IMG/VR virus record: IMGVR_UViG_3300008120_000036
Origin: an uncultured virus (IMG/VR IMGVR_UViG_3300008120_000036)
Taxonomy: Duplodnaviria > Heunggongvirae > Uroviricota > Caudoviricetes
DNA length: 20,000 bases
Direction: 5' to 3' (one strand)
Shown here: piece by piece, positions 56 through 20,000 of the stretch
Layout of the letters: every line of letters starts with the position of its first letter
Position numbering within the stretch: position 1 is the first letter of the stretch
Made by a program: the position numbers and the translations under genes
Notes under the pieces: model-generated
Told to the model about the DNA's origin: nothing
Databases searched by the model: none
Seen by the model: only the letters and a program-made list of their open reading frames with translations

Positions 56-268
56 TTACAACGCCCATTTCCATAACCAAACGAGTACAGGAATTGTTGT
101 TAAGAAAATAGAAAGTCCAATAATTCTAAGCAATCCTGATTTTGCTCTGTACAAATCAGACTGGGCTAAACTAGCATTGACAAGAGATTGATAACCGTCT
201 TGTCCTAGTGTTGCTTCAACATGACCGTATGCTTTAGCGATTTCTTCAAACCTATCGTCTTTATCCAT
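56..268 (-). CDS. Hypothetical membrane protein
   Basis: 70-aa ORF, GGGAGAG RBS, C-terminal hydrophobic segment IIGLSIFLTTIPVLVWLW. Confidence 0.7.
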   Translation of the reverse strand: MDKDDRFEEIAKAYGHVEATLGQDGYQSLVNASLAQSDLYRAKSGLLRIIGLSIFLTTIPVLVWLWKWAL

Positions 269-289
269 TTTAATATCTCTCCCTAGTTA

Positions 290-2782: not shown

Positions 2783-3747
2783 TTGCTCTCCTTTGTTAGT
2801 GACTTTAATATTCTGCGCTTTGCAAGTTCTGTATATTCAGGATTTAATTCAATGCCTATAAATTTTCTGCCATGCCGTAACGCTACTACTCCAGTAGTTC
2901 CACTACCTGCGAATGGGTCTAATACTGTATCGCCAACCTCAGAACCTGCAAGGATGCAGGGTTCAGCAACACCTTCAGGCATGACTGCAAAATGTGCTCC
3001 TTTGAATGGTTTAGTTGTAATACTCCAAACTGAACGCTTGTTTTTCTTTTCATAAGATTTAGTTAGTCCAGTATGCGGTGATAGTCCAGTGCCTTTATTG
3101 TGATACTTACCGTTAGTTCTATCCCTAGTTCCCCAATCTTGTGCAGGCTCTTTTATTGCTTCATTGTCATAAAAATATCTATCATTCTTTGCAAGTAAAA
3201 AGATATATTCATGAGATTTAGTGCATCTATCCCGAACAGATTCGGGCATTGGATTTGGCTTATGCCAAATTATGTCTTGTCGGAGATACCAACCATCTTG
3301 CTGTAATGCGAACGCTACTCGCCAAGGAATACCAACCAAGTCTTTATGTTTAATATTAGCCTGCTTTAATATTGCAGGATTTCTATTAGATGCACTCGGT
3401 ACTGCTGTTCCTTTATTTCCATTTCTTAAAGTATCGGGTACGGCTTTACTATCACGCATTGATGCATATGAATCGCCAAGATTTAACCAAACAGTTCCAT
3501 CATCAGCAAGTACTCGTTTTATTTCACGAAATACTTCTACGATAGATGTTACATAGTCATCAGGAGATTGTTCTAAACCAATTTGTGTTTCAATACCATA
3601 ATCCCTTAAACCCCAGTATGGAGGAGATGTAATGCAAGTTCTAATTGAACCTGCTGGCATTTGACTTAGTATTTTGCGACAGTCACCAGTATGTAAATTA
3701 AAATTTGAGTTGCGTTTTAATTTAACGGTGATTAGTCGTTTAGTCAT
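2779..3747 (-). CDS. Orphan DNA methyltransferase, beta class (N4-C/N6-A)
   Basis: TSPPY (motif IV) precedes [11 protein letters not shown] (motif I); [25 protein letters not shown]. Confidence 0.92.
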
Positions 3748-4018
3748 TCTTAATAATACCTAGCCTTTTCGCTTCGTTGGGATTTGCATAAGCATTGCCA
3801 ACACTGAAACCAAACAATAGTGCCTGTCTGAGTACCATGTCAAATAGTTCCAAATTGAGCATTTCTGCGACTGAATCACCCTGTGTAAATTGATGCACTT
3901 TGTCTGAGTATCGTATTGTGTGGTCTTGCGCCCACATAATCAATTCAATATCCCTAACCACTGGATGAGTTCCCGACAATACGGCTTTTGTAACATCTTC
4001 TAATTTAGCGATATCCAT
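3740..4018 (-). CDS. Hypothetical protein
   Basis: 92-aa ORF filling the gap between dnaE and the methyltransferase. Confidence 0.7.
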
Positions 4019-4022
4019 GTTG

Positions 4023-6716: not shown

Positions 6717-7153
6717 TTCACCACCTCATCTTCTTCATAAGGTCTTTGTACTGCACCAACATAATCGGCAACACTATCAACCTTCCTACCTTCTTTCCAA
6801 GTAAATGGAGTGCTCTGTCCTTCAGGCAATATCCATAAGTGATATTGATTAGCACCATCAACTAGTGAACTTTCAGGAGGAAAGATTTCTAAACCTTCTC
6901 TTTCCGCACCTGCTAATTCATTTTTGATTCTTTGAAAGTGTCGCCAATCTCTAATTGCTTTCCTGTCATTACGGCGAATTGATAACCATAATGCGCCAGT
7001 GAGTCCAACATCAGGTTGCAGTACTTTGAGTAACACATGAAACAATCCATTTGCATAAAGTGTTTCATTTTCATCAAGTGGCTGTTCTTCACCAGTTACG
7101 GAGTTGAACGCCTCTTTTGTTTCAGTCCACTTTGTCCATTGTGGGTTTGGCAT
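6713..7153 (-). CDS. Conserved hypothetical phage protein
   Basis: WLSIRR-x-D...DWRHFQRIKNEL...E-x-FP-x-ES-x-LVD-x-ANQYHLW, a pattern I recall from phage proteins; strong RBS AAGGAGG. Confidence 0.8.
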   Translation of the reverse strand: MPNPQWTKWTETKEAFNSVTGEEQPLDENETLYANGLFHVLLKVLQPDVGLTGALWLSIRRNDRKAIRDWRHFQRIKNELAGAEREGLEIFPPESSLVDGANQYHLWILPEGQSTPFTWKEGRKVDSVADYVGAVQRPYEEDEVVK

Positions 7154-7179
7154 ATATAACCTCCTTGGTTATTTGTTGA

Positions 7180-8040
7180 TTATGGTTTTGTATATGAAAC
7201 GGTGCATCCAAGATTCCTGCTTGTCTGCGTTCCTCCGTTATATGTGTATTCAGTTCTGCATAATGCATCACCCGAAATACTTTCAACAACATAGTTCCAA
7301 CTCTTACCGCCGACACATCCTGCATCAGCATCACCTACACCACCTGCAACTACTCCACCATCTGTAGGACAAGCACTACCTCTTGCACTTGGTGCTGTTA
7401 TCTGTGGCGCAATAACTTGTGGCACAAAAACAGGCTCAGGTGTCGGTGTTGGAGTAGGTGTCGGTGTAGGCGTTGGGGTCGGTTCAGGGGTCGGGGTACT
7501 GGTCGGGGCAGGGGTTGGGCTAGATTCAGCCTGCCCATTTAAGGGGCTGGNNNNNNNNNNNNNNNNNNNNNNNNNNNNNNNNNNNNNNNNNNNNNNNNNN
7601 NNNNNNNNNNNNNNNNNNNNNNNNNNNNNNNNNNNNGGGCTATTAGACGGACTTTCAGGGGTGGGGGTAGGTGTAGGGGTGGGGTCAAGCGTGGGGCTAG
7701 GGGTCGCTGTAGGGGTAGGGGTAGGGGTCGGTTCAGTCTGAGTACTTGCAGTTGAAGTATCTGATTCAGTCACGCTAGTTGAAGTATCACTCAGTGATGC
7801 TGTCACTGTACTTGTATCTGATGTTGTGAGTAGCGTTGAAGTTTGACTTTCAAATATCAATACGCGGTCTTCAACAAATGGTTCTTCCTCTAACATTGTT
7901 TCTTCAACTGGAATTGGTTCACCAAAAATATCTGTGTCAGCAAATATTCCTGTTGAGTACATGATGATTGATTGTGCTGGTGTTGGCGCGATAAATAAAA
8001 GTACTACAAACGCTAACACGAATTTAACTTTTCGTTTCAT
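7180..8040 (-). CDS. Secreted/surface Ser-Thr-Pro-rich protein with PT repeats and a small Cys-containing C-terminal domain
   Basis: Signal peptide MKRKVKFVLAFVVLLFIAPTPAQS; GGAG RBS before ATG 8040; frame across the N gap (7551-7636) unverified. Confidence 0.7.
   Translation of the reverse strand: MKRKVKFVLAFVVLLFIAPTPAQSIIMYSTGIFADTDIFGEPIPVEETMLEEEPFVEDRVLIFESQTSTLLTTSDTSTVTASLSDTSTSVTESDTSTASTQTEPTPTPTPTATPSPTLDPTPTPTPTPESPSNSXXXXXXXXXXXXXXXXXXXXXXXXXXXXXXSPLNGQAESSPTPAPTSTPTPEPTPTPTPTPTPTPTPEPVFVPQVIAPQITAPSARGSACPTDGGVVAGGVGDADAGCVGGKSWNYVVESISGDALCRTEYTYNGGTQTSRNLGCTVSYTKP
7434..7740 (-). repeat. Pro-Thr coding tandem repeats flanking an assembly gap
   Basis: Degenerate 6-nt repeats (ggggta/ggtgtc) on both sides of an 86-N gap. 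Confidence 0.8.
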
Positions 8041-8149
8041 TATTATCTCCATCTTCTTGTGGGTCTTGTGATTCTTCATATATCTTTATTAAGTCATCAA
8101 GCATTGGCTTAGGTGTTTCAAATGGCAATTCATCTTGTATCACCATCAT
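8024..8149 (-). CDS. Small acidic hypothetical protein (41 aa, not in ORF track)
   Basis: ATG overlaps the upstream TGA; MMVIQDELPFETPKPMLDDLIKIYEESQDPQEDGDNNETKS. Confidence 0.5.
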   Translation of the reverse strand: MMVIQDELPFETPKPMLDDLIKIYEESQDPQEDGDNNETKS

Positions 8150-8367
8150 GATGCACGCACCGAGCATTCAAGGCAGGTATATCCGTAAAGATTGTTTGCA
8201 TACAACTGTACGAACATATCTGTTCTGTTATAGAGGTATCCGCATTCATGACAGAACTTTTGATTATGATTCTGTAAATAGGAAGTTATTTGCGAGCGCG
8301 AAAGTGAATCTACATGAACACGCTTTTTTGTTTTGATTACATTCCATATATTAATTTCTTCATCCAT
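8146..8367 (-). CDS. Small zinc-finger-like protein
   Basis: CHEC...CLEC; AAGGAG RBS. Confidence 0.7.
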   Translation of the reverse strand: MDEEINIWNVIKTKKRVHVDSLSRSQITSYLQNHNQKFCHECGYLYNRTDMFVQLYANNLYGYTCLECSVRAS

Positions 8368-8402
8368 GATTGCTCCTTAATTTATATTTATGTTATTAAA
8401 GT

Positions 8403-8454
8403 GAACAGTTCCGCACTAGACCAAGGAGGTGTATTTACTAGTACGGAACTGCTC
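8403..8454 (-). ncRNA. 17-bp hairpin with an anti-Shine-Dalgarno loop (candidate antisense sRNA domain)
   Basis: GAGCAGUUCCGUACUAG / CUAGUGCGGAACUGUUC; both non-WC pairs are G-U on the minus strand; loop UAAAUACACCUCCUUGGU. Confidence 0.6.
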
Positions 8455-8459
8455 TATAT

Positions 8460-8688
8460 ACCGTGTTCGCAGTTGGCGGTAAAACCCAACTAAGAAGTGA
8501 CACAGCCCCAATACTCCATATCGTCTTTTTTACTATATGAACAGGAAGGGATTGAACCATCCACATAGCAATGGAGTAGTTGTGTCCTGCGAAGTGATGA
8601 ATGACTACTGGCTACAACACAATGGGGTTTGTGGAGCGAACTTGTAGTCCTCACCACACTTAACCTAACCATGACGGATAGTTAGGTG
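8460..8688 (-). ncRNA. Candidate multi-helix structured RNA with a T-loop and possible pseudoknot
   Basis: Nested helices found by eye (see findings); no credible ORF. Confidence 0.55.
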
Positions 8689-8690
8689 TC

Positions 8691-9734
8691 CTAGAACGGT
8701 GCTTCCTCTTCATCCTCTTCGTCAACAGATGCCACATCAAGAATCATTTCAATAATGTCATCTTTAGATGCGCCAGCCTTAACTTTGAGTTCATAGTCAG
8801 CAGCGATTTCTTTGATTTCTTTCATAGACATTTTGCGTAGTTCGTCTTCATCAAGGACAACAGTTTCATACTCGCCATCCTCAGAATCAGAATCGTCTTC
8901 CTCAGACTCATCATCCTCATCATCATCAGAACTACTACCAGTTGCAAGCACCTCGTCATCCTCATCATCATCTTCAGCATCACCGAGAATCAGATTGATA
9001 AGGTCATCACTATCTAGACCTTTTGTTGTATGACCAAGTTCGCGTGCAATAACTTTCAGTTCAGCGAGTGACTTCTCTTCCAAGTCATCACGGCTGTATT
9101 CTGCATCAGAATCAGAGTCGTCATCCTCGTCTTCGTCTTCGTCATCATCCACTTTTGATTTTGGTGTTGACTTAATTGACTTACGAGCCACTGGCTTTTC
9201 GTCTTCCTCGTCTTCGTCATCATCATCAGAATTGACTGGCACATCTTCCAATTGAGATTCTAGTAATCCCATAAGGTCTAGCAAGTCATAGCGTTCCAAG
9301 TTCATCTTGGTTGGAGGTTCAGGTGTTACATCATATTCAGTATCAAGTCCTGCTCCTGAACGCGATAATTCATAATCACGGTCTAGCAAGGTTGCATACT
9401 TGTCATACTTCTTTAACAGAGATGCAGCAACAGACTTTGGCATTACTAATGGAACAACCCTGCTTTCCGCAACATCTAATGCGTTAGCGAGATATCTTGC
9501 AGCAGGTCTTTCTTGTGTTTGCACGCCCTCTACAGAGGGAAAGAAACGCTTTTGTTCTGCATCATAATATTCAAAGTAAGCAATCCATTCAGTTGGTTCA
9601 GTAAGAAAACGAACGGTCAGTGAGCCGTCAGATGGAATTCTTGTTAGATAACTTCCACTGCCACCGCCTTTCTTTACAGATGACCTTAGTGAATTAATGC
9701 TTGTTACTTTTCCACCTCGGATTTGTTTTGGCAC
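8691..9734 (-). CDS. Probable single-stranded DNA-binding protein (gp32-like) with an acidic C-terminal half
   Basis: LTVRFL and G-x-GLDTEYDV motifs typical of phage SSBs; two Rho-N-like helical repeats; acidic tail ending EEAPF. Confidence 0.72.
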   Translation of the reverse strand: MPKQIRGGKVTSINSLRSSVKKGGGSGSYLTRIPSDGSLTVRFLTEPTEWIAYFEYYDAEQKRFFPSVEGVQTQERPAARYLANALDVAESRVVPLVMPKSVAASLLKKYDKYATLLDRDYELSRSGAGLDTEYDVTPEPPTKMNLERYDLLDLMGLLESQLEDVPVNSDDDDEDEEDEKPVARKSIKSTPKSKVDDDEDEDEDDDSDSDAEYSRDDLEEKSLAELKVIARELGHTTKGLDSDDLINLILGDAEDDDEDDEVLATGSSSDDDEDDESEEDDSDSEDGEYETVVLDEDELRKMSMKEIKEIAADYELKVKAGASKDDIIEMILDVASVDEEDEEEAPF

Positions 9735-9824
9735 GATTAACCACCTTCTTGTTGATATAGCATTAAGGGATTTCCTTAATTACTAGATGAGAACTCATAG
9801 TTTGAATTTCACCTTGGTGTTATT

Positions 9825-9853
9825 AACCTATTACATGATTTTTTAAGGTGCAA
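9825..9853 (-). promoter_or_regulatory. Putative promoter TTGCAC-N17-TAGGTT
   Basis: Same CTTGCACC -35 context as the promoter at 19964-19992; lies just downstream of a terminator. Confidence 0.5.
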
Positions 9854-9868
9854 GTTCCTTTACATATC

Positions 9869-9927
9869 TGCATAGGTGTAATTATTAATTTGCATAGGTG
9901 CATATTTAATTTATTTATGCACTGGTG
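9869..9927. repeat. Direct repeats TGCATAGGTG x2 plus TGCACTGGTG in AT-rich DNA
   Basis: Copies at 9869-9878, 9891-9900 and 9918-9927. Confidence 0.6.
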
Positions 9928-9935
9928 AATAAATG

Positions 9936-9981
9936 AAAAAGTGACAGTAATGTTTGTCGCGGAAACACTACTGCCACTCTT
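9936..9981 (-). terminator. Intrinsic terminator
   Basis: AGUGGCAGUAGUGUUU-CCGCGAC-AAACAUUACUGUCACU followed by a U-run, just after the stop at 9997. Confidence 0.75.
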
Positions 9982-9996
9982 CCCTATATTCAGTTT

Positions 9997-10596
9997 TTAA
10001 TTATCCACCTTGTAATCAGATGGATACTTTTTGAGCCACTTGTAAAACGCAGGCTCGTTTACTCCGCCATTGTACGCCTCAGAACCAATATCCCAAGACG
10101 ACCAATCACTTCCCCCATTTGTCATGTGGAAAACAATCTCGGCGTTAGTTACTGGGTCAAACAATTGCTTATTTGAATCCAGTCCGAATTTGGCTCGCCT
10201 ATCTTCACCTAATGTTCCAATCATGTTGATTTGGAATATGCCATAGGAGTTATCTCCAGTGTTTATATTGTCATTATGTGCCAATGGGCGACCATTTGAT
10301 TCACGCTTTACAACTGCCCATGCAGTCTTCAGAGATTTACCCTGAAAACCTACCGAATGTAGTAAATCTACCAATTCAGTATCAGTGAGTTGTTCTTTAG
10401 CGTTACGGAATTCTGCGACTGTAGGTTTATCTGTTGCAAACAGATAGTTAACTGTTTTAGCAGGTAACTCTACGGTGAACTCCTTAATCGTTGGTGCTTC
10501 TGCTCTCGCAACCGTACCAACGCTTGTTGCTAGTACTGTGACTAGCGAATAGGTGACAACTATGGCTTTTGTCAACCTTTGGGGATTACTTAACAT
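9997..10596 (-). CDS. Secreted lysozyme-like / lytic transglycosylase (SLT-type) protein
   Basis: N-terminal signal peptide (ARA cleavage), AWAVVKRES (catalytic Glu), DNSYGIFQIN, LFDPVTNA, W-x2-W. Confidence 0.82.
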   Translation of the reverse strand: MLSNPQRLTKAIVVTYSLVTVLATSVGTVARAEAPTIKEFTVELPAKTVNYLFATDKPTVAEFRNAKEQLTDTELVDLLHSVGFQGKSLKTAWAVVKRESNGRPLAHNDNINTGDNSYGIFQINMIGTLGEDRRAKFGLDSNKQLFDPVTNAEIVFHMTNGGSDWSSWDIGSEAYNGGVNEPAFYKWLKKYPSDYKVDN

Positions 10597-10607
10597 CAGT
10601 GCTCCTT

Positions 10608-10835
10608 CTAGGGTTCAAGTGAGTTGTCACAGTCAGGGTTATTGCAACCATAACTAAAACAACGCACACAGCGTTCGTTGCTCCTTTCTTCTTCTAGTAG
10701 GGATACGCAGGCTTGAATGTGTTTTATGTCGGTGAAGAGCCGACCATCCTTTGCTTTCCGTATCGGTAACTGCTTCTTGCACAGTGGACAAGAAACACTT
10801 CTTAGACTCAATGTATTAGAGCCTGCATTTATCAT
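10608..10835 (-). CDS. Small Cys-rich (zinc-binding) protein
   Basis: CPLC, H-x3-C, CVRC-x4-C-x4-C; AGGAGG RBS. Confidence 0.7.
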   Translation of the reverse strand: MINAGSNTLSLRSVSCPLCKKQLPIRKAKDGRLFTDIKHIQACVSLLEEERSNERCVRCFSYGCNNPDCDNSLEP

Positions 10836-10858
10836 AGCAACCTCCTATACATAGTTGT

Positions 10859-11410
10859 CTAGTTCAGAACATCACTTGGTGGATAGAATTTCTTCCAAAA
10901 CTCCAAGCGTGAACGAACATCCATTAGTATGATTCCTAACCAATTTTGACCTTTTCGTGTCATTGGTCTATTAGGTTTATCGCTTTCATATAAATCAACT
11001 CCCCAAACAGTGTCATTCCAAAATGTACCTTCTTGTAGATACGCATTATTTGTACCTAGTAATAATTTACCCAATTCAGAATTAGAGGTAAATTTAGTTA
11101 ACACAATTGAATGCATTGTTTTGTATTTGATTGCTTCCCAGTCAGAGCGTACTGCGATACTACGACCAAGATATTTTGCTTCATCAGGTGAACGCGCATC
11201 ACGAATCATATTGAAGTCAGAGGTGTTTCTAGCCTTCATTGCTTGATATGCGTGTTCACTTGTCTGCCAAGTATCACTGCCCCATGTAAATGGAGAGCCT
11301 TCATAGAAGTTAGATAAAAACGCATATGGATTATATCCAGCGAAATCATCAAACCAATCTATGAGTATTTCAGGATTCTCTTGCAGTTTTATCCCATCTA
11401 TTTCAAACAT
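10859..11410 (-). CDS. NADAR (YbiA-like) family protein
   Basis: FLSNFY, TSEHAYQAMK, AKYLGR, RSDWE, KF...LLLGT, WND-x2-WG, GQNWLG-x-ILM-x-VR. Confidence 0.9.
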   Translation of the reverse strand: MFEIDGIKLQENPEILIDWFDDFAGYNPYAFLSNFYEGSPFTWGSDTWQTSEHAYQAMKARNTSDFNMIRDARSPDEAKYLGRSIAVRSDWEAIKYKTMHSIVLTKFTSNSELGKLLLGTNNAYLQEGTFWNDTVWGVDLYESDKPNRPMTRKGQNWLGIILMDVRSRLEFWKKFYPPSDVLN

Positions 11411-11421
11411 ATAATCACCAC

Positions 11422-11550
11422 CTATTCTGAGTATTGCTTTTTATATTTTGTTTTTCTTGTGTATTTCTTTTTGTTACGGATTGCTGTAGCAGAATTACTA
11501 CGGCGGAGTTCCAGTAACCGCCGTAGTTCTTCTTTTGTCTTCTTAAACAT
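11422..11550 (-). CDS. Small basic peptide (42 aa, not in ORF track)
   Basis: MFKKTKEELRRLLELRRSNSATAIRNKKKYTRKTKYKKQYSE; ATG 1 nt after the upstream stop. Confidence 0.65.
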   Translation of the reverse strand: MFKKTKEELRRLLELRRSNSATAIRNKKKYTRKTKYKKQYSE

Positions 11551-11551
11551 A

Positions 11552-11686
11552 TTAATCTTTAGTAAATTCAATCTTTAAGTTATCTACCATGTAAGGTAGA
11601 AAACTTTCAAGAATTTTCTTAATATCTTTATTGACAGAATCATTATTAGAGTCAATAAAGTATTTAATGTTAATTGATATGTTCAT
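11552..11686 (-). CDS. Small hypothetical protein (44 aa, not in ORF track)
   Basis: AAGGTGA RBS; MNISINIKYFIDSNNDS...; fills the gap exactly. Confidence 0.55.
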   Translation of the reverse strand: MNISINIKYFIDSNNDSVNKDIKKILESFLPYMVDNLKIEFTKD

Positions 11687-11698
11687 GAGTTACTCACC

Positions 11699-11998
11699 TT
11701 ATTCTTCGCCGTAGATTTCTATACTGGCATCTAGCGTTACCAATTTAAGTATCGCTGGTTTAGACCGAGAGGCATTTACTACATCTTCTACTGTAGAAAA
11801 TACCCAAGGGTCTTCAGTTAAGTTTTCAGGAGTTACAACTTCCCAAAATACTTTTCCTGCAACACGGCATTCGTATGCAGTCCAATGCTCCATAGCATTC
11901 TCTGCACGCTTTGCTTCTGCTTCTTCCTCTTCAATACGATTAAACAAGTCAGCCATTGTCCACTTGCTTCGTATTGATACAACATTGTTTTCACTCAT
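11699..11998 (-). CDS. Hypothetical protein
   Basis: Likely start MSENN at 11998, overlapping the upstream stop. Confidence 0.7.
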   Translation of the reverse strand: MSENNVVSIRSKWTMADLFNRIEEEEAEAKRAENAMEHWTAYECRVAGKVFWEVVTPENLTEDPWVFSTVEDVVNASRSKPAILKLVTLDASIEIYGEE

Positions 11999-12329
11999 GT
12001 AACACCGCCACTGGCTCTTTTCCATTTTCCACTGGAAGGAATCTTTCAACAGGAAATAATTTTTGATAAGAGTCATGTGCTATATCAAGATAGAATTCCA
12101 CTGGTTCTGTTTTGTAATTTAATTTTGCGAGTATCTTACAACGGTGATGTTGAATACCTGCAAAATCCATATTATGAAATGCAAGCATTATTGTGATGAG
12201 GCTGATGCCGTTTGGGTCAAGGTTTGTCTTTAGCCAACCAGTATCAACTGTGCGGTTGAACTTATTTCTTGATGACTCATAAGCAATGTATAACAAGTCA
12301 TCTGCATGAACTGCTTTCATATTATCCAC
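11991..12329 (-). CDS. Hypothetical protein (alternative start 12383)
   Basis: AAGGAG 7 nt before GTG 12329. Confidence 0.7.
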   Translation of the reverse strand: MDNMKAVHADDLLYIAYESSRNKFNRTVDTGWLKTNLDPNGISLITIMLAFHNMDFAGIQHHRCKILAKLNYKTEPVEFYLDIAHDSYQKLFPVERFLPVENGKEPVAVLHE

Positions 12330-12379
12330 TTTGATTCTCCTTATTGTTTTTATTGTTGTTGTTTCTGTAATTGTGATAG

Positions 12380-12574
12380 TCATATGCCTATCCTTTCATG
12401 TGCATAATCCCAAGCCCTAAACTGGACTCTTCGCCAAGCATCTTCATGATTGTTGATACGCATGACTACTTTTCCATCAACTTCTAGATAGGCATATCTC
12501 CCATCTTTGGTTGTATAACCTTCTACACCATCTGCGAAAGTGGTCATTACATATTCTCTTTTACCGAGCAACAT
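12380..12574 (-). CDS. Hypothetical protein (start may be 12547)
   Basis: ORF tiles between neighbours. Confidence 0.6.
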   Translation of the reverse strand: MLLGKREYVMTTFADGVEGYTTKDGRYAYLEVDGKVVMRINNHEDAWRRVQFRAWDYAHERIGI

Positions 12575-12725
12575 GGAACACCCCTAAGCAGAATCTGCAA
12601 CTACTTGTATGCAGTGACATATCTGCACCGAATACACCCGAAGTTATAGATACTCCACAACTACGGAATAACAGACAAGCGAATTCACTATCTGTTAATT
12701 CTTCTTTGGTTTCATCAATCGCCAT
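12561..12725 (-). CDS. Small Cys/His-containing hypothetical protein
   Basis: GGAGGA before ATG 12725; C...C...H-x3-CRFC. Confidence 0.6.
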   Translation of the reverse strand: MAIDETKEELTDSEFACLLFRSCGVSITSGVFGADMSLHTSSCRFCLGVFHVAR

Positions 12726-13008
12726 TTCTATCCTCCAATACATTTGGGTGATGTGCTTTTAGATGAGTTGATATGCGCTCGCGTGTTGACTTAGAAAGTT
12801 TTGCCATTGCATTACTTTCAGTACGGCGTATATATAGGCGTTCTGTTGAGAATATGTCAGCGACCTCTGTAAGATTTTTTGGTCTGCTAACCAATCCAAA
12901 ACGCAACGCGACTATAGCGAGTTCATGTTCATTTAATTCATTAGCAATCATATGAAATGCGCTATCAGCAACTAACTTATTTATTAAGTCTTGCGCTAAG
13001 TAATTCAT
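12715..13008 (-). CDS. Stand-alone sigma-70 region 4-like HTH protein
   Basis: LNEHE-x2-IVALRFGL...LTEVADIF...ERLYIRRTESNAMAKL matches the region-4 pattern; GGGAGG RBS, TAATG coupling. Confidence 0.75.
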   Translation of the reverse strand: MNYLAQDLINKLVADSAFHMIANELNEHELAIVALRFGLVSRPKNLTEVADIFSTERLYIRRTESNAMAKLSKSTRERISTHLKAHHPNVLEDRNGD

Positions 13009-13430
13009 TATTCCTCCCAAATGTAAGGTAGTGAATCGGGTACATTAGGAAAGAACTTACGATAATGCTGAGGTAATTTCCTAACTAGGTTTGACTGGTG
13101 ACTTATATGGAAAGCAGAGTTACCAAGTAAGGTCGGTGTGCTGTTTTGACCTTTGAAATACTTAGCAAGCGATATTGTCTTGCCGAGTACTGTGTCGTTG
13201 TATCCGCGACTAATCCATTCTTCACAGATAGCAATGTTGTAGTTAATGAGTTCTAGACCGTGACCACGCCACATCTTTACGGCTGGATGATTAGACCATC
13301 CAGTACCGTTACTGATGCCAGCCAAGTTACGAAGTATTTGATAAGACTCAACGCGTTGCTTACCAAGCCTTTTCATATCTAGAACTTTTGCCGACTTTGA
13401 ATAATCGGCATATGGCAGAAATGTTTGCAT
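13008..13430 (-). CDS. Pyrimidine-dimer DNA glycosylase-like protein (MSMEG_6728-type)
   Basis: MQTFLPY...LD-x-KRLGKQRVE-x2-Q, HPAVKMWRG, EW-x2-RGY-x-D, SHQSNLVRK, Y-x-W. Confidence 0.85.
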   Translation of the reverse strand: MQTFLPYADYSKSAKVLDMKRLGKQRVESYQILRNLAGISNGTGWSNHPAVKMWRGHGLELINYNIAICEEWISRGYNDTVLGKTISLAKYFKGQNSTPTLLGNSAFHISHQSNLVRKLPQHYRKFFPNVPDSLPYIWEE

Positions 13431-13450
13431 AGATATCCCTTTCTATTTTG

Positions 13451-13687
13451 TTATTCACTCATTATTACTACATCAGTCTTGCGACCATTAAAGTCACGAA
13501 TACCTTCTTCAATATCTGATATCCATGACATAAATACAGACCGAGAGAAGTTAAAGTTCACCCGACTAGCGACTAAGCAAAATATATCTATGGCTTGATA
13601 TATTGCTTTGACTTTATCAGCATCATTCTCGTCACGAAGTAATTTTCCAAATTCATTCGCAGCGATAATGAAATGTTTCTTAGTCAC
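13451..13687 (-). CDS. Hypothetical protein
   Basis: AAGGAGG RBS, GTGA overlap; MTKKHF...N-x-NF-x-R-x2-F. Confidence 0.75.
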   Translation of the reverse strand: MTKKHFIIAANEFGKLLRDENDADKVKAIYQAIDIFCLVASRVNFNFSRSVFMSWISDIEEGIRDFNGRKTDVVIMSE

Positions 13688-13941
13688 TTGACCTCCTTAC
13701 TTTTTCTTCCTGGTTTTTGAGTCCGTGCAAGTTCAAGTAATTTCTGTATGTCCTCTTCTGAGTAAAGCCACACATCTAACTTGCCGACTTTCATCTTTCC
13801 CGAAGGTACACATAATCCGAGTCTGTGCCAACGCTTCAAGGTATCTACAGAACGCTGTACTTTCTGTGATGCCTTTGAACGCGTTAACCATTGTTCAGGA
13901 GTAATGTGTCCGATACCGTTTCCTGTGTTGTTTGTTTTCAC
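13684..13941 (-). CDS. MerR-like HTH DNA-binding protein
   Basis: SVDTLKRWHRLG...WLYSEEDIQKL; C-terminal KPGRK. Confidence 0.75.
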   Translation of the reverse strand: MKTNNTGNGIGHITPEQWLTRSKASQKVQRSVDTLKRWHRLGLCVPSGKMKVGKLDVWLYSEEDIQKLLELARTQKPGRKSKEVK

Positions 13942-13945
13942 ACCG

Positions 13946-14500
13946 CTATCCCTTCTTCCTCTTCAGTGTTACTTTGCGTGCCATATCTTCTGCCTTCTTA
14001 TTTAACACAGACATATCAATATTTTCAATATCTTCAATTGACATACCTGCCTCATCACCTTGGCGTGGTGATACTGGTGGGATATATGTAACGGTTGTAG
14101 CAGTAGGTGTTTTGACAGTACTCTTGACAGTTGGCTTCTGTCTGACTGTAGGTTTAACACCTTTGTATAGTTCACTTGTTGTAATCATTGGCTCACCAAG
14201 TTTTTCATGGCGTGCTTTGTAATAGAAATAAGTGACACTACGAGGTTGCACCATTCCGTTTTTGCATTCGCAAATCTTGAAGTAATTTGCACATTGCGAG
14301 CAAGTATCCCAAGCAATATGCCATCCATCTTCTAGAATTGTCACCATGCACTTAACTTCTAGTGTGTCATTATCAACACGATAGTAAGTGTTAGGTAGCG
14401 GTGATGAGAAAGTGATGTTGCCACGAACCTCATCTTCTACTGGATACAGTGTGTAATCGGGAAAGTCTTTATCCACGATACTTCTTGATTTTGTTTTCAT
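13946..14500 (-). CDS. Hypothetical protein with Cys cluster
   Basis: 184-aa ORF; CSQC-x6-CEC. Confidence 0.75.
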   Translation of the reverse strand: MKTKSRSIVDKDFPDYTLYPVEDEVRGNITFSSPLPNTYYRVDNDTLEVKCMVTILEDGWHIAWDTCSQCANYFKICECKNGMVQPRSVTYFYYKARHEKLGEPMITTSELYKGVKPTVRQKPTVKSTVKTPTATTVTYIPPVSPRQGDEAGMSIEDIENIDMSVLNKKAEDMARKVTLKRKKG

Positions 14501-14665
14501 CTATTGCCCCTTTTCAATAGTGACATGAACTCCATATGTAGATAGTTCAGTCTTTGCCAACAAGCGAGCCATTGTCTTTTTAACAATGTCTAGTGCTTCA
14601 TCTTCTGTAGCAGAAGGATGAACATAAACTGGTACTTCCATCTTTACAAGATATTTACCACTCAT
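14501..14665 (-). CDS. Small hypothetical protein (54 aa, not in ORF track)
   Basis: GGGGAG RBS; MSGKYLVKMEVPVYVHPSATEDEALDIV...; stop abuts the next ATG. Confidence 0.65.
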   Translation of the reverse strand: MSGKYLVKMEVPVYVHPSATEDEALDIVKKTMARLLAKTELSTYGVHVTIEKGQ

Positions 14666-14674
14666 GTTTCTCCC

Positions 14675-15070
14675 CTACGCAGTAATCCGAATGTAGGGCT
14701 TACCCTCATTCTCAGTACTGCACTTAGCAACTGCTGTTGCACTAACCTCACCCGAAGCAATAAATGCTTCTAGTTTCTTCTTGTCAAGAACACGGCTGGA
14801 TACCTTGTTCCATAGAGTTTCGCCAAGTGATTTCTTTAATCCAGTTTCATCTATCACAGTGCGATTGCTTTGTGAACGAGTCGCCTTGATACTACGACCA
14901 CCTTTCACTTCTACTTCATGTGTCTTCACTTCCAGTGAATCAAGTGTCGCCACAATGCGCTGTTGAAGAGCATCAATAGTGTCTTCAAGTTCATCCTTCT
15001 GTCGGCGCAGTTCATCAAGAGCGATAATGTCTTCATTTAACTGCATTTGAATTGCTTTCATTTTAGCCAT
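14675..15070 (-). CDS. Hypothetical coiled-coil phage protein
   Basis: AAGGAG RBS; N-terminal coiled coil, IDETGLKK. Confidence 0.8.
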   Translation of the reverse strand: MAKMKAIQMQLNEDIIALDELRRQKDELEDTIDALQQRIVATLDSLEVKTHEVEVKGGRSIKATRSQSNRTVIDETGLKKSLGETLWNKVSSRVLDKKKLEAFIASGEVSATAVAKCSTENEGKPYIRITA

Positions 15071-15088
15071 TTTATATTTCTCCTTGGG

Positions 15089-15739
15089 TTATTGTTCTAG
15101 TAGATGGGCGATATAACTTAGTGGCAAAAATACTGCCGTACCTTGCAAGTAGCAATTGTGGAATCTAGTTCCCACCTTTGGCTCACTTGTAAGTTTTACT
15201 TTTAATCTTTTGTTACCTACACCTGTAACGATATAAGTAACGCCAGTCATGTACTTAGGATTAACGGTATAAGGCATTGCAAACTCCTTACCCTTGAATG
15301 CATCCTTTGGATAGTACTTACCCCGATAGACAAAATGATTAGTGTCACTTGTCAACAGAGATGCAGATACTGGTTGCACTTTGTTATCTGCGGTAGGCAC
15401 TGGCGAATTGTTAGCCGATACATTGCCAGCAGGCTCATCACTAGCGAAAGGTGCATTAGGGTCATAGAACCCTTTCTTCTTTGGCGTGAATTGAGGTGGT
15501 GTCTGTTTAGTACCGCCCTGTGGTAATTGCATTGGAGTTGGTGTTGGTGCTTTTGGTGGATTACCCAATAGCACATCACGCCTATTAAATAGTGCGCGAC
15601 CAATCTCCTTGATATATGAATCTAGATATCCTTTATCAAGAACATCAATAATCCACTGACTGAATTCAGTGGCATCCATAGTTAGCAGAGCATCATTCAA
15701 TGCTTGACTAGTACTGAATGGTTGTTGTGTCTGTGTCAT
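15089..15739 (-). CDS. Hypothetical protein
   Basis: 216-aa ORF, AAGGGAG RBS, Pro-rich linker. Confidence 0.8.
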   Translation of the reverse strand: MTQTQQPFSTSQALNDALLTMDATEFSQWIIDVLDKGYLDSYIKEIGRALFNRRDVLLGNPPKAPTPTPMQLPQGGTKQTPPQFTPKKKGFYDPNAPFASDEPAGNVSANNSPVPTADNKVQPVSASLLTSDTNHFVYRGKYYPKDAFKGKEFAMPYTVNPKYMTGVTYIVTGVGNKRLKVKLTSEPKVGTRFHNCYLQGTAVFLPLSYIAHLLEQ

Positions 15740-15753
15740 TTTTACACTCCCTT

Positions 15754-17679
15754 CTAGTGTTCTGTGAATGACAAGTTAGCAATGACTCGCGCTAAGTCAA
15801 CTAACTGGCGTGTATCGTAGATGCGCTTTGCGAATTGGCAATTGTGCCTTTTGTGTTCAGGCAAATCTTCTGCCTCATCATTAAGGTTTTGTGAATAGTG
15901 TGGATAGTCAAGAAATGCCAGTGCTGTAAGTACACCTGCATTATTCATTGACTGAATCAATTCATCATTACCTTCAACACCGTAATCACCATCCCACTCA
16001 CCATCAGTAACGAAGAAGCAAATCTTGTTACCGCGCTGTGTGGCATCAAACACTTTGAGTGCTTGACGGATTGCATTGTTGGGCTGTGTGTTGTTATCTG
16101 AACCGAATACACGGAACTTAGATGAATCAGCCAAATCATCTTTGTCATATAGCAAGTGAGTAGAATCATTGAATGCAAGAACAGTTACATTTGCATTGAT
16201 TGACTCTAGTGCAGACTTGATAACCCACATTGCCTTAGATGCTTCATGCATTCTGTAAGACATAGATGAACTGATATCAAGAAGAATCACTGCCTCAACT
16301 TCAGTACTGTCAATTTGACCTTCGCGGAATGAGTCAAAGATTTCAGTGAAATCATCCCCACGCATTGCACGGTCAATATTTACACGACCTGCTGAGTTAC
16401 GCGATTCCCAATATGGGTCAGCATCAGTACGCAACTTTTTCAACTCGTAAGCAAATTCATCTACTAACAAGTTGTCTTCTGTATCAACTGGATGCTCAAC
16501 ATAACGGCGACTACTTAGATTGATAGTGACTTCACCATCACCAGCAGTAATAGCCTCCTGCTTGTTCTTTGCATCAGCAATAACATCAGCAGACTGCATA
16601 ACCTTATCTTTGATAACACTAAGAAGTTTCATAACCTCTTCATAGTTATCAGGTAGGTCAGTAGATACATCAGTATCGCCACCACTAACACCACCGTCAG
16701 ATGGAGCAGAAGAATCTGAATCTGAATCATCTTCATCTGAATCATCCGCATCAGAACCAGCACCACCTTCTGAATCAGACTCTTCATCAGCATCTTCATC
16801 AGTATCAGCATTGCCACTTCCGTTACCTTCTACAGAATCATCAGCATCAGACTCTTCATCAGTGTCTGTATCTGAATCATCATCAAGGTCTTCTGCATCA
16901 CGCTCTTCCAACTCCTCATCAAGATAGTCAACAGCATCTTGTGTATCTTGCTGCTCGCCAACTGGCGCAGAACTACCTACAGATATGAGTGGTCGTTGAC
17001 CACAGATATGACCAAATGGGTCTTTTGGCTTAACTAGATTTGTAGTTAAGAGGATGCGGTGGAATTTTTCCACTAACACAATTGCACGGTCATTATCAGT
17101 TGGGAAAACTAACTTACGATACTCGTCAATTATTTTCTCAATCTGCTTGACATACTTTTGGTGTGCAAACTGTCTGCGGAACTCATTACGCATTGCAATC
17201 GGCAAGTAACGGCGACCATGCATGATAATGAAATTAGCCTTCCAATCTTCAGGGCTATTTGTACAGTAACGAGTAAAAGTAGCAATGAAGTAAGGAATAG
17301 TCGCAGGATAGATAGCAGTAAGCATGGACTCAATACGCTGGTCTTCCAAGATATTGAATGCATCATTCCATCCATTAGCCAAGACCTCAGTAACAATCTT
17401 GGTGTTCTTGCGAGGTGTGTACAAGACATGACTCAACTCATGATAGTTGAACCCAGTGACTTGCACGATATCTTCAATCGTACCGATATTGTAAATACGG
17501 CTCGCATTGAATGTAATGTGGCGACCATCAGACCATGCTGGTGCAGAGTTGTAATGGTCATCAACCACTGAACAAGATACTTCTTCCGCACTAAGAATTC
17601 TGTTAGCGCGTGCAAAGACACGACTCATTGCTTCAAGTCGTGCAATGTGTTCATCACTTGACGGCATTAATGTAGTCAT
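15754..17679 (-). CDS. VWA (MIDAS) domain protein with N-terminal HExxH domain and acidic linker (CobT-like)
   Basis: HELSH, NILEDQRIE, D/E/S-rich linker, LLDISSSM (DxSxS), NNTQP, VTDG. Confidence 0.88.
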   Translation of the reverse strand: MTTLMPSSDEHIARLEAMSRVFARANRILSAEEVSCSVVDDHYNSAPAWSDGRHITFNASRIYNIGTIEDIVQVTGFNYHELSHVLYTPRKNTKIVTEVLANGWNDAFNILEDQRIESMLTAIYPATIPYFIATFTRYCTNSPEDWKANFIIMHGRRYLPIAMRNEFRRQFAHQKYVKQIEKIIDEYRKLVFPTDNDRAIVLVEKFHRILLTTNLVKPKDPFGHICGQRPLISVGSSAPVGEQQDTQDAVDYLDEELEERDAEDLDDDSDTDTDEESDADDSVEGNGSGNADTDEDADEESDSEGGAGSDADDSDEDDSDSDSSAPSDGGVSGGDTDVSTDLPDNYEEVMKLLSVIKDKVMQSADVIADAKNKQEAITAGDGEVTINLSSRRYVEHPVDTEDNLLVDEFAYELKKLRTDADPYWESRNSAGRVNIDRAMRGDDFTEIFDSFREGQIDSTEVEAVILLDISSSMSYRMHEASKAMWVIKSALESINANVTVLAFNDSTHLLYDKDDLADSSKFRVFGSDNNTQPNNAIRQALKVFDATQRGNKICFFVTDGEWDGDYGVEGNDELIQSMNNAGVLTALAFLDYPHYSQNLNDEAEDLPEHKRHNCQFAKRIYDTRQLVDLARVIANLSFTEH

Positions 17680-17691
17680 GTGCTTACCTCC

Positions 17692-18717
17692 TTATTTCTC
17701 TTCTTCGTAGAACCAGTCAACGCCTTGCTCACCAAGTTCGGAAAGGTCTGCATCTGCATCAACCTCTACGACTTCGTATTCGTCATCAACTGATGATTTT
17801 GATTTCTTTGTAGATGCCTTCTTAGGCTTGTTAACCAACTCTGTTTCAATGTTGACTAACCATGTATCGCAAACAACCTTAACTGCACCGCGTTCACGGC
17901 GAGCATTGAAGTGATTGACAAAAGACATAATTGCTGAATTGATACCAAGTTCTTTGGTAATCTCTTCAAACTCCATCAACATATTTGTACTAAGTGGAGT
18001 CTTGATTGTGCCTTTACCAATTTCTTCACGAATCTGACCTGCCATATCAAGCAACGACTTAGAAGTAATAAGTTGTGCCTCAATAACTGGGTCATAGTCA
18101 TACTGCAATTGAACAGCGAAGCGATTACGCAGTGCTTTGTTGAGGTCACGCGTTCCTTCATAGTTAGGATTTTGTGTAGCGATAACAATGAAGTTATCGG
18201 GTGCAATGATGACCTCTGATTTGTGGTCGGTCAATGTAATAGAACGGCGTTTATCTAAGATTTCGTGAATCTCAAATAACTGGCGTTCAGATGCTGAATT
18301 TAATTCGTCAAGGATAACTAAGCCTCCATGACGGACAACATCAGTAAGAGCACCATCTTGCCAAGCAAAGTGACCATCCTCAGTAGGAATCATCTTGCCA
18401 AACAATGTGGACTTTTCAGTACCGACTGAAAATGAAATAACAATGGCTGGAATACCTCTTGATTCTGCCCAAGCCAATGCACCAGTTGTTTTACCACAAC
18501 CAGTAGGAGATTCAATTAGAACATTACGCTTGTTACGCAATGCGTAATCAAACCACTCAAAGTCTAACTTCTCGCCGACTTTGCGATTGATGTACTTGTC
18601 TTCATAGCCACTAGGTACACTGGCTATCTCATTCTTATAGGTTGATTTACCCACTTTGTTTTTCCCTTCAGTAGTTGTTGACTTACTGCGCTTTACTTTG
18701 TACTGGACTTTACTCAC
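17692..18717 (-). CDS. MoxR/CbbQ-like AAA+ ATPase
   Basis: SPTGCGKT, WQDGAL, ILDELN, IATQNP, ALRNRF; GTG 18717 follows AAGGAGG. Confidence 0.9.
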   Translation of the reverse strand: MSKVQYKVKRSKSTTTEGKNKVGKSTYKNEIASVPSGYEDKYINRKVGEKLDFEWFDYALRNKRNVLIESPTGCGKTTGALAWAESRGIPAIVISFSVGTEKSTLFGKMIPTEDGHFAWQDGALTDVVRHGGLVILDELNSASERQLFEIHEILDKRRSITLTDHKSEVIIAPDNFIVIATQNPNYEGTRDLNKALRNRFAVQLQYDYDPVIEAQLITSKSLLDMAGQIREEIGKGTIKTPLSTNMLMEFEEITKELGINSAIMSFVNHFNARRERGAVKVVCDTWLVNIETELVNKPKKASTKKSKSSVDDEYEVVEVDADADLSELGEQGVDWFYEEEK

Positions 18718-19031
18718 TTGTTTACCTCCTTGGTAGTGATGCATTCAAACTGGATTGAAACTTCACCAGTCTTTTCATTTATTAATTCCATGCCACCGTT
18801 GAATACTTCAATGGCACGATATGCTCTATCAATTTCATTCTGCTTCTTGGCAGCATGAAGATTGTCTATTAGAACATTTGCTTGCTCATGTGTTACACAA
18901 ACTGGTTGATAGTTAGGTGTATTAGGAAAGAGCCAACTTAGTAACACGATTATTAAGATTGCAGGAAAGAATGTAAATACAAACTTACCTCTTGGGGTTA
19001 ACACTGACCAAAAGTTTTCTAAGCGATTCAC
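18714..19031 (-). CDS. Hypothetical membrane protein
   Basis: LTPRG followed by a hydrophobic helix; coupled to both neighbours. Confidence 0.75.
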   Translation of the reverse strand: MNRLENFWSVLTPRGKFVFTFFPAILIIVLLSWLFPNTPNYQPVCVTHEQANVLIDNLHAAKKQNEIDRAYRAIEVFNGGMELINEKTGEVSIQFECITTKEVNK

Positions 19032-19171
19032 TTATTGCTCCCTTCTAGTAGTTTCCAATCAGATACGAATTCAGCATTATCAAGAAAATCTCTTGTTTGC
19101 TTGATTGCATCTTCGTATGATTCAGCCTCTCCAGTGAATGTGACTTCAACTGTTATGTCGTATTGCGCCAT
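19028..19171 (-). CDS. Small hypothetical protein (47 aa, not in ORF track)
   Basis: AAGGAGG RBS; MAQYDITVEVTFTGEAESYEDAIKQ...; TGA overlaps the next GTG. Confidence 0.7.
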   Translation of the reverse strand: MAQYDITVEVTFTGEAESYEDAIKQTRDFLDNAEFVSDWKLLEGSNK

Positions 19172-19200
19172 GATTACCTCCTTGGTAATTGGTGTTTGGT

Positions 19201-19257
19201 CTAAACACCATAGAAGGACATAGACCTCATAAATCTATGTCCAACTAAAGAATTTAG
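19201..19257 (-). promoter_or_regulatory. Long imperfect hairpin in the leader (possible processing or stability element)
   Basis: GGACAUAGAUUU-AUG-AGGUCUAUGUCC (19216-19242), extendable by CUAAAU/GUUUAG. Confidence 0.55.
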
Positions 19258-19299
19258 AATTCTTGCTAGGTACATTCTCCGCAATGCTTGTCAACTTAG

Positions 19300-19957
19300 T
19301 ATTTGGTTATCTGTGAGTTCTACTAACTAATCCATATCTATTAGGTGACTACACTCGCTTCGTCTGCTACCTACAGTTTGTGTTATACGCTCCGCTTAGA
19401 ACATTTCGTTACAACCTTGGCAGAATTATCGGCTCGCACCGACCAAGTGATTGTTGGTTTGTATAGACTCGCTGTAAGCAACTGCTTGTGCTAGATATGC
19501 TTTCCTCACCCTTAGCAAACTTTGGGTTGGTAGTTCATTGAGTACTTGGTTTTGTGCCGACTGAATCGGTCTTGCTGTAACTCCACACCAAGTCGCATGG
19601 ACTGTTACAGGCTCAACAGTTGGGGTACTTGACTACGCTCTCGGTCTTTCCCTCAGCCCCAGTTCCCAAATGTCACTCCGTCTGTCACTACGGTTTGGTT
19701 ATCGCACCCTAATCGGTTATGGTCGTTTTTCGCTCCTAGATGCCTGTTGTGTAGAAGGCTATCGGTCTGAATCACACTCGCAAGTGAATCCGCATTCACA
19801 AGTAACAAACTTGATGTAGTCGGATTGTTCTGACTCTTAGGCAGTAACCGCGTTGGGCTGTTGAACTGCTGTTCTTTCACTCTATGTAGTTGTCAATGTC
19901 TTGCCTCGTATGCGACCCTAGCCTTTGCTCCCCTGTCGGGGGGGGCTAACCGTGCAT
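19300..19957 (-). ncRNA. Candidate large structured non-coding RNA (boundaries approximate)
   Basis: Downstream of a good promoter; many nested and long-range helices with G-U pairs favouring the minus strand; no credible ORF. Confidence 0.6.
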
Positions 19958-19963
19958 GGGTCA

Positions 19964-19992
19964 ATTATGCCTTATATATACATATGGTGCAA
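19964..19992 (-). promoter_or_regulatory. Housekeeping-sigma promoter TTGCAC-N17-CATAAT
   Basis: -35 at 19987-19992, -10 at 19964-19969, 17-bp spacer. Confidence 0.7.
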
Positions 19993-20000
19993 GCATCTTC

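Follow-up and report, generated by a model that had tools for sequence, protein, structure and literature searches.

To our knowledge, very few classes of bacterial or phage RNAs exceed 500 nt, and no function has been assigned to any that phages encode. Two of them, GOLLD and ROOL (Rumen-Originating, Ornate, Large), are described in a preprint, according to which GOLLD is abundant during the lytic cycle, ROOL, exemplified by a 659-nt member, can equal 16S rRNA in abundance, and both are of unknown function (Kretsch et al., bioRxiv 10.1101/2024.12.08.627333). A third point of reference is a non-coding RNA of non-RepA cluster A mycobacteriophages, described as being expressed by the prophage beside parABS and needed for plasmid-like maintenance (Wetzel et al. 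2020, PMC7157519). Here, we analyze 20,000 nt of DNA from an uncultured tailed phage (IMG/VR record IMGVR_UViG_3300008120_000036; this whole stretch is referred to as the window) and report that an interval at the head of its replication operon, proposed in an initial annotation to encode a large structured RNA, gives rise to a discrete, abundant non-coding RNA.

Like GOLLD, the window RNA is phage-encoded, non-coding, several hundred nucleotides long and found in aquatic metagenomes. However, it yields no match to the GOLLD covariance model even at E-values up to 10 and, at ~690 nt, is shorter than the many GOLLD members that exceed 800 nt. Moreover, GOLLD genes frequently, if not obligatorily, lie near tRNA islands, whereas the window contains no tRNA or tmRNA gene detectable by ARAGORN. 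GOLLD also has a conserved 3' region, whereas the window RNA seems better conserved in its 5' half, and its multimer or extensive covariation is so far without counterpart in the window RNA. ROOL shares with the window RNA its phage or prophage origin, similar size and abundance, but the window RNA has neither an Rfam match nor a neighboring tRNA gene, no counterpart has so far been found in it of the pseudoknot-rich fold that covariation defines in ROOL, and its phage is a freshwater one whose closest cultured kin are actinobacteriophages. A scan of the whole window against Rfam 15 at gathering score (cmscan) produced no match, GOLLD and ROOL included, and a permissive search of 19000-20000 (E up to 10) gave two chance-level matches only, to a microRNA and a flavivirus element; the initial annotation had recognized no family by eye. 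Judged by these comparisons, the window RNA is not a member of GOLLD or ROOL, and its features fit an undescribed class that belongs to no described RNA family. The RNA of the cluster A phages resembles it, as far as published descriptions allow a comparison, in being an actinobacteriophage-type non-coding transcript of a few hundred nucleotides near replication or partition functions, but it lies beside parABS, whereas no parABS, integrase or repressor gene was found among the 20 open reading frames (ORFs) of the window that were scanned.

Expression of the interval is evident from public sequence data. Of the 24 public runs listed, 20 contain positions 18700-20000, all aquatic except one labelled as a fungus metagenome; six of the listed runs are metatranscriptomes, each containing 19-27% of the sampled words of this region. 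Contigs from three metatranscriptomes of river and lake RNA (X15, X16 and X18, from three studies) and from one DNA run (X10) were compared with the window. In X15, the interval is represented by a single 676-nt contig (19269-19945), in X18 by two contigs (19266-19471 and 19500-19941), and in X16 by two more (19263-19543 and 19504-19881). Neither X16 nor X18 has any contig on 18500-19262 or 19946-20000, and the flank in X15 is represented by one divergent contig of lower depth (18926-19196, 21 differences). By contrast, contigs of the DNA run cover all 30 bins and continue beyond 20000. Thus, in all three metatranscriptomes compared, the RNA was assembled and the flanking genes were not, bar the low-depth contig of X15, although contig depth does not equal true level. 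Carry-over of DNA is unlikely, because uniform carry-over would cover the flanks as well. Given that the RNA contigs lack the flanks and those of the DNA run include them, the simplest reading is an RNA of ~0.7 kb that outlasts or outnumbers the neighboring message by far. The borders originally proposed, 19260-19960, agree approximately with the span of the RNA-library contigs (19263-19945). No match to a 22-mer that stays unchanged among the listed variants was found in 185,579 species genomes, so that the RNA shows no sign of a host-gene origin in the genomes that could be searched.

The interval is non-coding. The window consists of one long minus-strand gene train, a replication operon of ~19 kb that encodes a DnaE-like polymerase, a RecA/UvsX-like recombinase, a Cas4-like exonuclease, a DNA methyltransferase, the single-strand DNA-binding protein SSB and a CobS-like AAA ATPase with a CobT-like partner. 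Its genes are tightly packed from 56 to 19171, followed by a gene-free stretch up to the window end (19172-20000). This stretch contains no credible ORF, and the gap noted in the initial annotation is real; the longest frame (75 aa, GTG start) lacks a ribosome-binding site, matches no PHROG or Pfam family and would be frameshifted in natural variants by a 1-nt deletion at 19681, one of the 1-nt indels found in variants of the interval. The region thus combines a length of more than 500 nt, as seen in the 676-nt contig, with the absence of any ORF longer than 75 aa. Its G+C content is 0.487 over 19601-20000 as compared with ~0.40 for the window.

The listed helices, on which the proposal of an ornate structure rested, could be examined in natural variants. 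All 14 helices named in the initial annotation are found where it had placed them, with 78 of 78 pairs complementary (four of them G-U). These pairs were fixed before any variant was seen, and changes were judged against random placement of an equal number of substitutions. In the hairpin at 19698-19666, A19696-U19668 is changed to G-C and G19691-C19680 to A-U in the haplotype of the RNA runs, and A19694-U19670 is changed to U-A in the X10 haplotype, with pairing kept in every case. In simulations, at least two kept double changes are expected by chance with P = 4e-5 for the RNA-run haplotype and at least one with P = 0.028 for the X10 haplotype; moreover, the RNA-run haplotype breaks none of the listed pairs, as compared with 2.4 expected (P = 0.064). 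Selection for pairing in this hairpin is thus firmly supported. No compensatory change supports the closing helix of the 5' domain, one of whose pairs is lost in X10 through U19864>C. Of the remaining 69 listed pairs, two are broken in one of the three haplotypes compared. Among the other helices, the hairpin at 19575-19610 has no variant among those listed, U19438>C in the RNA-run haplotype converts the U-G pair closing a GCGA tetraloop to C-G, a one-sided compatible change, and a change at 19565 with an inserted A falls in a hairpin loop. A prior-free search for compensatory pairs (all variant pairs, 4-bp contexts) had no power, with null means of 1.5-2.2.

Strains in the DNA run X10 differ along the interval. 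A second strain is at least 88% alike over 19586-20000; it also shares a 30-mer at 19229-19258, beyond which, further into the RNA, it is visibly related but less than 88% alike. No X10 contig of a strain other than the window's own reaches 88% over the 3' half of the RNA or the adjacent 47-aa gene, and the 5' half therefore seems the better conserved part. Mosaicism among strains is seen in the small genes immediately downstream of the RNA: a strain in X10 diverges before 19169, and in a 76%-related metagenome contig (L007, 1-244) the 47-aa gene is replaced by a different, cysteine-rich ORF.

Transcription probably starts at a putative sigma-70-type promoter that is visible by eye on the minus strand (19992-19964), as implied in the initial annotation. 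Its predicted start site, at ~19957, lies 12 nt outside the RNA contigs, a shortfall that is normal at RNA ends. A 17-nt spacer is likewise found in the promoters upstream of the syntenic non-coding blocks in the Gordonia phages GMA6 (TTGACA/CATAAT) and ChisanaKitsune (TTGACT/TATTAT). At the opposite end, the RNA contigs stop at 19263-19269, at the 5' foot of the first of three hairpins that coincide with inverted repeat I1, so that the 3' end would fall within 19269-19245 and may result from weak termination or processing. The RNA probably derives from the minus strand, because the promoter sits on this strand, because G-U pairs in several listed helices, including both of those in the hairpin at 19575-19610, would be A-C mismatches on the plus strand, because C19530>U opposite G19504 keeps its pair only on the minus strand, and because a look-alike hairpin in other phages has the matching orientation. 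The features of the locus are compiled in the following table.

Table 1. Features of the RNA locus in the window and GTGACA hairpins in the loci compared (lower case, stems; upper case, loops).
Feature	Position	Strand	Details and basis
Non-coding RNA, ~690-710 nt	19245..19957	minus (probable)	Observed part 19263-19945; both ends uncertain by 10-20 nt
5' domain closed by GUUCAACAG (19866-19858) / CUGUUGAGC (19619-19611)	19611..19866	minus	Complementarity; present in minimum free energy fold, pair probability ~0.75
Hairpin, 9 pairs	19666..19698	minus	Outer CCAAA (19698-19694)/UUUGG (19670-19666); inner CCGU (19693-19690)/ACGG (19681-19678)
Loops of this hairpin	apical AGUGACAG 19689-19682; internal-loop AGUGACA 19677-19671	minus	Sequence
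Hairpin CUGUAAC/GUUACAG on UCCAUGC/GUGUGGA	19575..19610	minus	Two G-U pairs; sequence; minimum free energy and centroid folds
Hairpin UCGG/CCGA, GCGA (GNRA-type) tetraloop	19429..19442	minus	Loop closed by U19438-G19433; sequence
Putative sigma-70-type promoter	19964..19992	minus	-35 TTGCAC (19992-19987), 17-nt spacer, -10 CATAAT (19969-19964); read by eye
Three hairpins between RNA and first ribosome-binding site	19191..19264	minus	Sequence; possible terminator or attenuator elements
Hairpin AAGAAUU-CUA-AAUUCUU	19264-19248	minus	Weak, A-U; followed by UUU
9-bp hairpin GGACAUAGA-9 nt-UCUAUGUCC	19242-19211	minus	Followed by UUCUAU tail; sequence
Hairpin GGUGUUU/AAACACC	19209-19191	minus	Sequence
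Shine-Dalgarno AAGGAGG	19183-19177	minus	Precedes 47-aa gene; sequence
First operon gene, 47 aa	19028..19171, ATG at 19171	minus	ORF list and sequence; no family match
Window hairpin ccgu-AGUGACAG-acgg		minus	GTGACA hairpin listing
GMA6 hairpin gauacg-AGUGACAGA-cguauc		operon strand	GTGACA hairpin listing
ChisanaKitsune hairpin cgccg-AGUGACAG-cggcg		operon strand	GTGACA hairpin listing
ScarletRaider hairpin gccga-GUGACAG-ucggc		operon strand	GTGACA hairpin listing
L057 hairpin uuuaguaa-GUGACAG-uuauuaaa		operon strand	GTGACA hairpin listing

The closest cultured phages, as determined by their polymerase and ATPase (41-52% identity), are the Gordonia phages GMA6, DalanDe and those of the Chidiebere group (here comprising the eight phages ChisanaKitsune, Schomber, Gray, Kabocha, Chidiebere, ScarletRaider, UBSmoodge and FlyingTortilla) as well as the Brevibacterium phage Cantare. 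GMA6 and ChisanaKitsune have a gene-free gap at the syntenic spot (1055 and 1163 bp, respectively), which separates leftward primase and DnaB-helicase genes from the rightward operon of the CobS-like ATPase and its CobT-like partner. Downstream of a TTGACT-17 nt-TATTAT promoter, the rightmost 750 nt of the gap are far better conserved among the eight Chidiebere-group phages than the left part; RNAalifold predicts 216 pairs in them, eight with double changes. The Gordonia blocks thus resemble the window RNA in their location upstream of this operon, their sigma-70-type promoter with a 17-nt spacer and their 600-750 nt without genes, but they are rich in G+C and fold better than shuffled sequences (z = -3.27 for the ~600 nt after the GMA6 promoter and -2.13 for the Chidiebere-group block). 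GMA6 and ScarletRaider share a collinear chain of 14 7-mers, as compared with a maximum of 11 in 200 shuffles; the chain of 10 between GMA6 and ChisanaKitsune is equalled in 17 of 200. On this evidence, the GMA6 and Chidiebere-group blocks are mutually homologous and, taken by themselves, resemble a large RNA not described before. Neither has an Rfam match: at gathering score, Rfam 15 detected only tRNAs, in kin, among Cantare, GMA6 and ten kin loci, and a permissive search of the ChisanaKitsune gap gave chance-level matches only. The blocks (0.6-1.1 kb without genes in the nine records examined) are unannotated, apart from a short hypothetical ORF in two records, and a GUACUGCGA ... CACGCGAGCUAYGAACGG module is duplicated within them (ChisanaKitsune, L010 6845-7640; L047-L053; GMA6, L005 2442-3040). 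The left part of the ChisanaKitsune gap (L010 6499-6840), which is much less conserved than the right part, has direct repeats (AATAGGCCCCTGA three times, TTTGGTAATCCCC and ACCTTAGGGTT twice each) as well as inverted repeats and may hold operators or origin iterons. In DalanDe, the operon is kept and the block absent, with a 404-nt gap and a protein gene in its place. The 662-nt gap of Cantare contains no GUGACAG hairpin, and its sole good promoter lies 30 nt before the gene.

Taking these data together, we lean towards the view that the interval encodes a free, stable RNA of ~690 nt that represents a new class and acts in trans through its loops. In this model, 19957-19245 (minus strand) would encode one discrete and stable non-coding transcript of a freshwater tailed phage with actinobacteriophages as its closest cultured kin. 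Transcription would proceed from right to left, starting from the sigma-70-type promoter at the head of the replication operon. Termination or processing near 19265-19245 would then free the RNA from the message downstream, and it would accumulate to levels far above that message. By analogy with GOLLD and ROOL, it could then work as a free trans-acting molecule, whose conserved hairpin loops (AGUGACA, twice) would be contact sites for a protein or another RNA. Since the block is absent in DalanDe, an accessory RNA fits better than an essential cis-regulator or origin.

The loop sequence itself is frequent in the window. AGTGACA occurs at 10 sites (880, 7801, 15343, 19671 and 19683 on the minus strand; 8496, 9940, 12613, 14231 and 14519 on the plus strand), as compared with 4.0 +/- 1.9 expected, a number reached in none of 200 shuffles. 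Five of the sites read UGUCACU on the operon sense strand and are complementary to the loops of the RNA. Site 9940 lies upstream of the SSB gene within 9735-9996 (262 nt), the only other sizeable gene-free gap in the window; the adjacent 347-aa ORF (8691-9734, minus strand) combines a first half of the single-strand DNA-binding protein family with a C-terminus of the endonuclease VII family and may be a fusion. G001 has 12 AGTGACA sites in 44.7 kb, as compared with 2 for a reversed control. The contexts of the sites follow no common pattern.

Several results weigh against the idea of a free, structured RNA. First, the assembled (Logan) contigs carry no strand, exact-end or level information, and over 676 nt the haplotype found in the RNA runs departs from the window by 14 letters and 4 gaps, which means that expression is seen for a ~97% relative and not for the exact genome of the window. 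Second, thermodynamic stability is at chance level: the 731-nt stretch folds like its shuffles (z = -0.02 for the minus and +0.40 for the plus strand), the 281-nt 5' domain is no better (z = -0.21), and none of twelve 150-nt sub-windows of the minus strand falls below -1.06 (range -1.06 to +1.29), as compared with a mean of -1.78 for ten coding control windows. Sub-windows of the plus strand are likewise no different from their shuffles. Folding no better than that of shuffled sequence is one of the outcomes that the initial annotation had named as speaking against its proposal. Third, the X10 haplotype breaks three listed pairs (at 19690, 19812 and 19864), similar to the 2.9 expected by chance, and one of them, U19690-A19681, lies within the supported hairpin; these breaks were counted among the variants listed (9 of the 17 differences of contig 6), and partner changes may be hidden. 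Of the proposed ornate structure, the hairpin at 19698-19666 is backed by covariation, some of the other helices are weakly contradicted, and the folding energy lends no support. Fourth, the -35 sequence TTGCAC matches the consensus at just three of six positions and the promoter was missed by the consensus scan, and a terminator scan of the hairpin region called no terminator. Fifth, no alignable homolog of the window RNA was found in the collections searched, which limits covariation to three haplotypes. Finally, local alignments between the window RNA and the Gordonia blocks reach z-scores of only -0.6 to 2.1, with collinear 7-mer chains at chance; the link to these phages rests on one 8-nt loop and is a lead that falls short of proof.

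The main rival to a trans-acting RNA, possible but on balance rather unlikely, is that the replication operon has a giant 5' leader acting in cis, which would fold during transcription and control read-through into, or translation of, the downstream genes by attenuation at the hairpins at 19264-19191 or by processive antitermination; the 0.7-kb species would then be this leader after termination or cleavage. The stretch from the RNA to the first gene shows no evident promoter of its own, three hairpins, one with a UUCUAU tail, precede the ribosome-binding site, and the block in GMA6 and the Chidiebere group also runs directly into the first ribosome-binding site of the same operon; moreover, an excess of leader RNA relative to the genes is the expected outcome of attenuation. 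A leader fits less well with the retention of the operon in DalanDe, which lacks the block, with the absence of a called terminator, and with the position of the look-alike hairpin in the IMG/VR phage L057, which is flanked by two ORFs on the same strand and lies 1.6 kb upstream of the ATPase gene rather than at an operon head. In addition, all attenuators and antitermination elements that we know of need far less than ~690 nt.

An origin-linked role, in which the transcript would prime or open the replication origin of the phage by means of an R-loop or primer, in a manner comparable to ColE1 RNA II and to the non-coding RNA on which replication of non-RepA cluster A mycobacteriophage prophages depends, appears improbable. 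The block of the cultured kin does lie in the gap where the primase/DnaB-helicase genes diverge from the replication operon, the other half of the ChisanaKitsune gap has short direct repeats, and the published description of the cluster A system shows that an RNA-based origin is available to actinobacteriophages (PMC7157519). However, 19100-20000 contains just short two-copy repeats, with no iterons and no A+T-rich unwinding stretch, the region is richer in G+C than the genome, DalanDe manages without the block, and a primer or R-loop RNA would not be expected to build up as a free full-length species. Least probable of all is a product of no dedicated function, such as a nuclease-resistant decay fragment of a long untranslated leader, an antisense transcript from the plus strand or an effect of assembly or sampling where strains are mixed, an explanation that would be in line with the chance-level stability, with contigs that reveal neither strand nor ends and with strain mixtures that break assemblies near the 3' border (X10 contigs end at 19229 and 19258), but hard to reconcile with the recurrence of the same borders in three studies, with RNA contigs that end 5-11 nt short of the strain-shared 30-mer and not inside it, with compensatory changes indicating selection on pairing or with the higher similarity of the X10 strains over the 5' half than over the 3' half and the 47-aa gene.

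Returning to the free trans-acting RNA, a wider and more doubtful possibility is that the window RNA is the first expressed member of an undescribed large-RNA family common to freshwater and Gordonia phages (GMA6 and the Chidiebere group), with the operon-head location and a GUGACAG hairpin as its hallmarks. In sequence, the window RNA and the Gordonia blocks have only one thing in common, a hairpin with unrelated stems but an (A)GUGACAG loop; in the window, it lies on the operon strand, downstream of the promoter, in a long gene-free stretch. GTGACA hairpins occur 31 times in 54 sequences (both strands), and those that have the complete loop and lie ahead of the ATPase gene on the operon strand are from the window, GMA6 (twice, L005/L056), ChisanaKitsune, ScarletRaider and L057 (ATPase 45% identical), with a variant loop, UGGUGACAGC, in L067. 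According to rough estimates, coincidence would account for the loop shared by window and Gordonia phages with P ~0.01 (allowing for ~15 candidate loops) and for that of L057 with P ~0.07 (48 loci searched). The loop registers vary between lineages, and even the shared loop stayed unaligned when the window RNA and the Gordonia RNAs were aligned with MAFFT. Every pair that includes the window or L057 is at chance in local alignment and 7-mer chains, blastn found no similarity between the window RNA and the candidate-family loci, and an nhmmer profile of the Chidiebere group matched neither the window nor GMA6 nor seven other loci.

In L057, the hairpin lies in a 485-nt gene-free stretch that folds better than its shuffles (4412-4860, z = -3.78); a helix of 12-14 bp, GGGAAUGGGGAGU / ACUCCCCAUUCC, closes a ~300-nt domain around it, and a tRNA gene is located 1 kb downstream of this stretch. 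In two lineages the loop is 7 nt long, on stems of 5 bp (ScarletRaider) and 8 bp (L057). Such a hairpin may resemble an anticodon arm, with U at loop position 2, a GAC anticodon and A after it. If the family were real, the hairpins would be functional points of contact and might act as a decoy for a host factor that recognizes tRNA-like loops or, by analogy with GOLLD and ROOL, as the inter-molecular joints of an RNA assembly.

Further searches for relatives, which included no records very near the window, so that close strains may exist, were negative. The window RNA had no blastn match in 50,697 phage records, an 18-mer from 19790-19773 had none in IMG/VR, and the pattern AGTGACAG-N3-5-AGTGACAT retrieved 36 IMG/VR loci, none of them similar by blastn. 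Protein-anchored retrieval returned two viral loci, none via the vWA protein and four metagenome loci, and alignment of the ATPase returned 48 IMG/VR loci, of which blastn matched none with the window RNA. In L006 and L007, whose ATPase is 76% identical, both loci stop short of the RNA, and L007 differs in the gene upstream of the 105-aa gene. Searches for further members of the candidate family were no more successful: the pattern GTACTGCGA-N8-36-CACGCGAGCT matched three loci in IMG/VR (GMA6 and two resembling coding DNA) and 89 in species genomes, approximately the chance number and none with GTGACAG within 200 nt downstream, and an L057-derived 16-mer matched 52 loci, of which only L057's own contig matched beyond 19 nt. 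Literature searches on GOLLD and ROOL, GMA6, Gordonia phage non-coding RNA and structured RNA in freshwater metatranscriptomes yielded no description of the window RNA, and the models in the main article of a 2023 catalogue of viral candidate structured RNAs, its supplements aside, are limited to 29-151 nt (PMC10690425).

Collectively, our results provide a candidate large RNA for which environmental samples already indicate expression and natural variants indicate selection on at least one helix. Its possible counterparts in cultured Gordonia phages, whose host strains are on record, may offer experimental access to it. If the link between the two lineages were true, it would account for the conserved gene-free block of 0.6-1.1 kb in nine Gordonia phage records.

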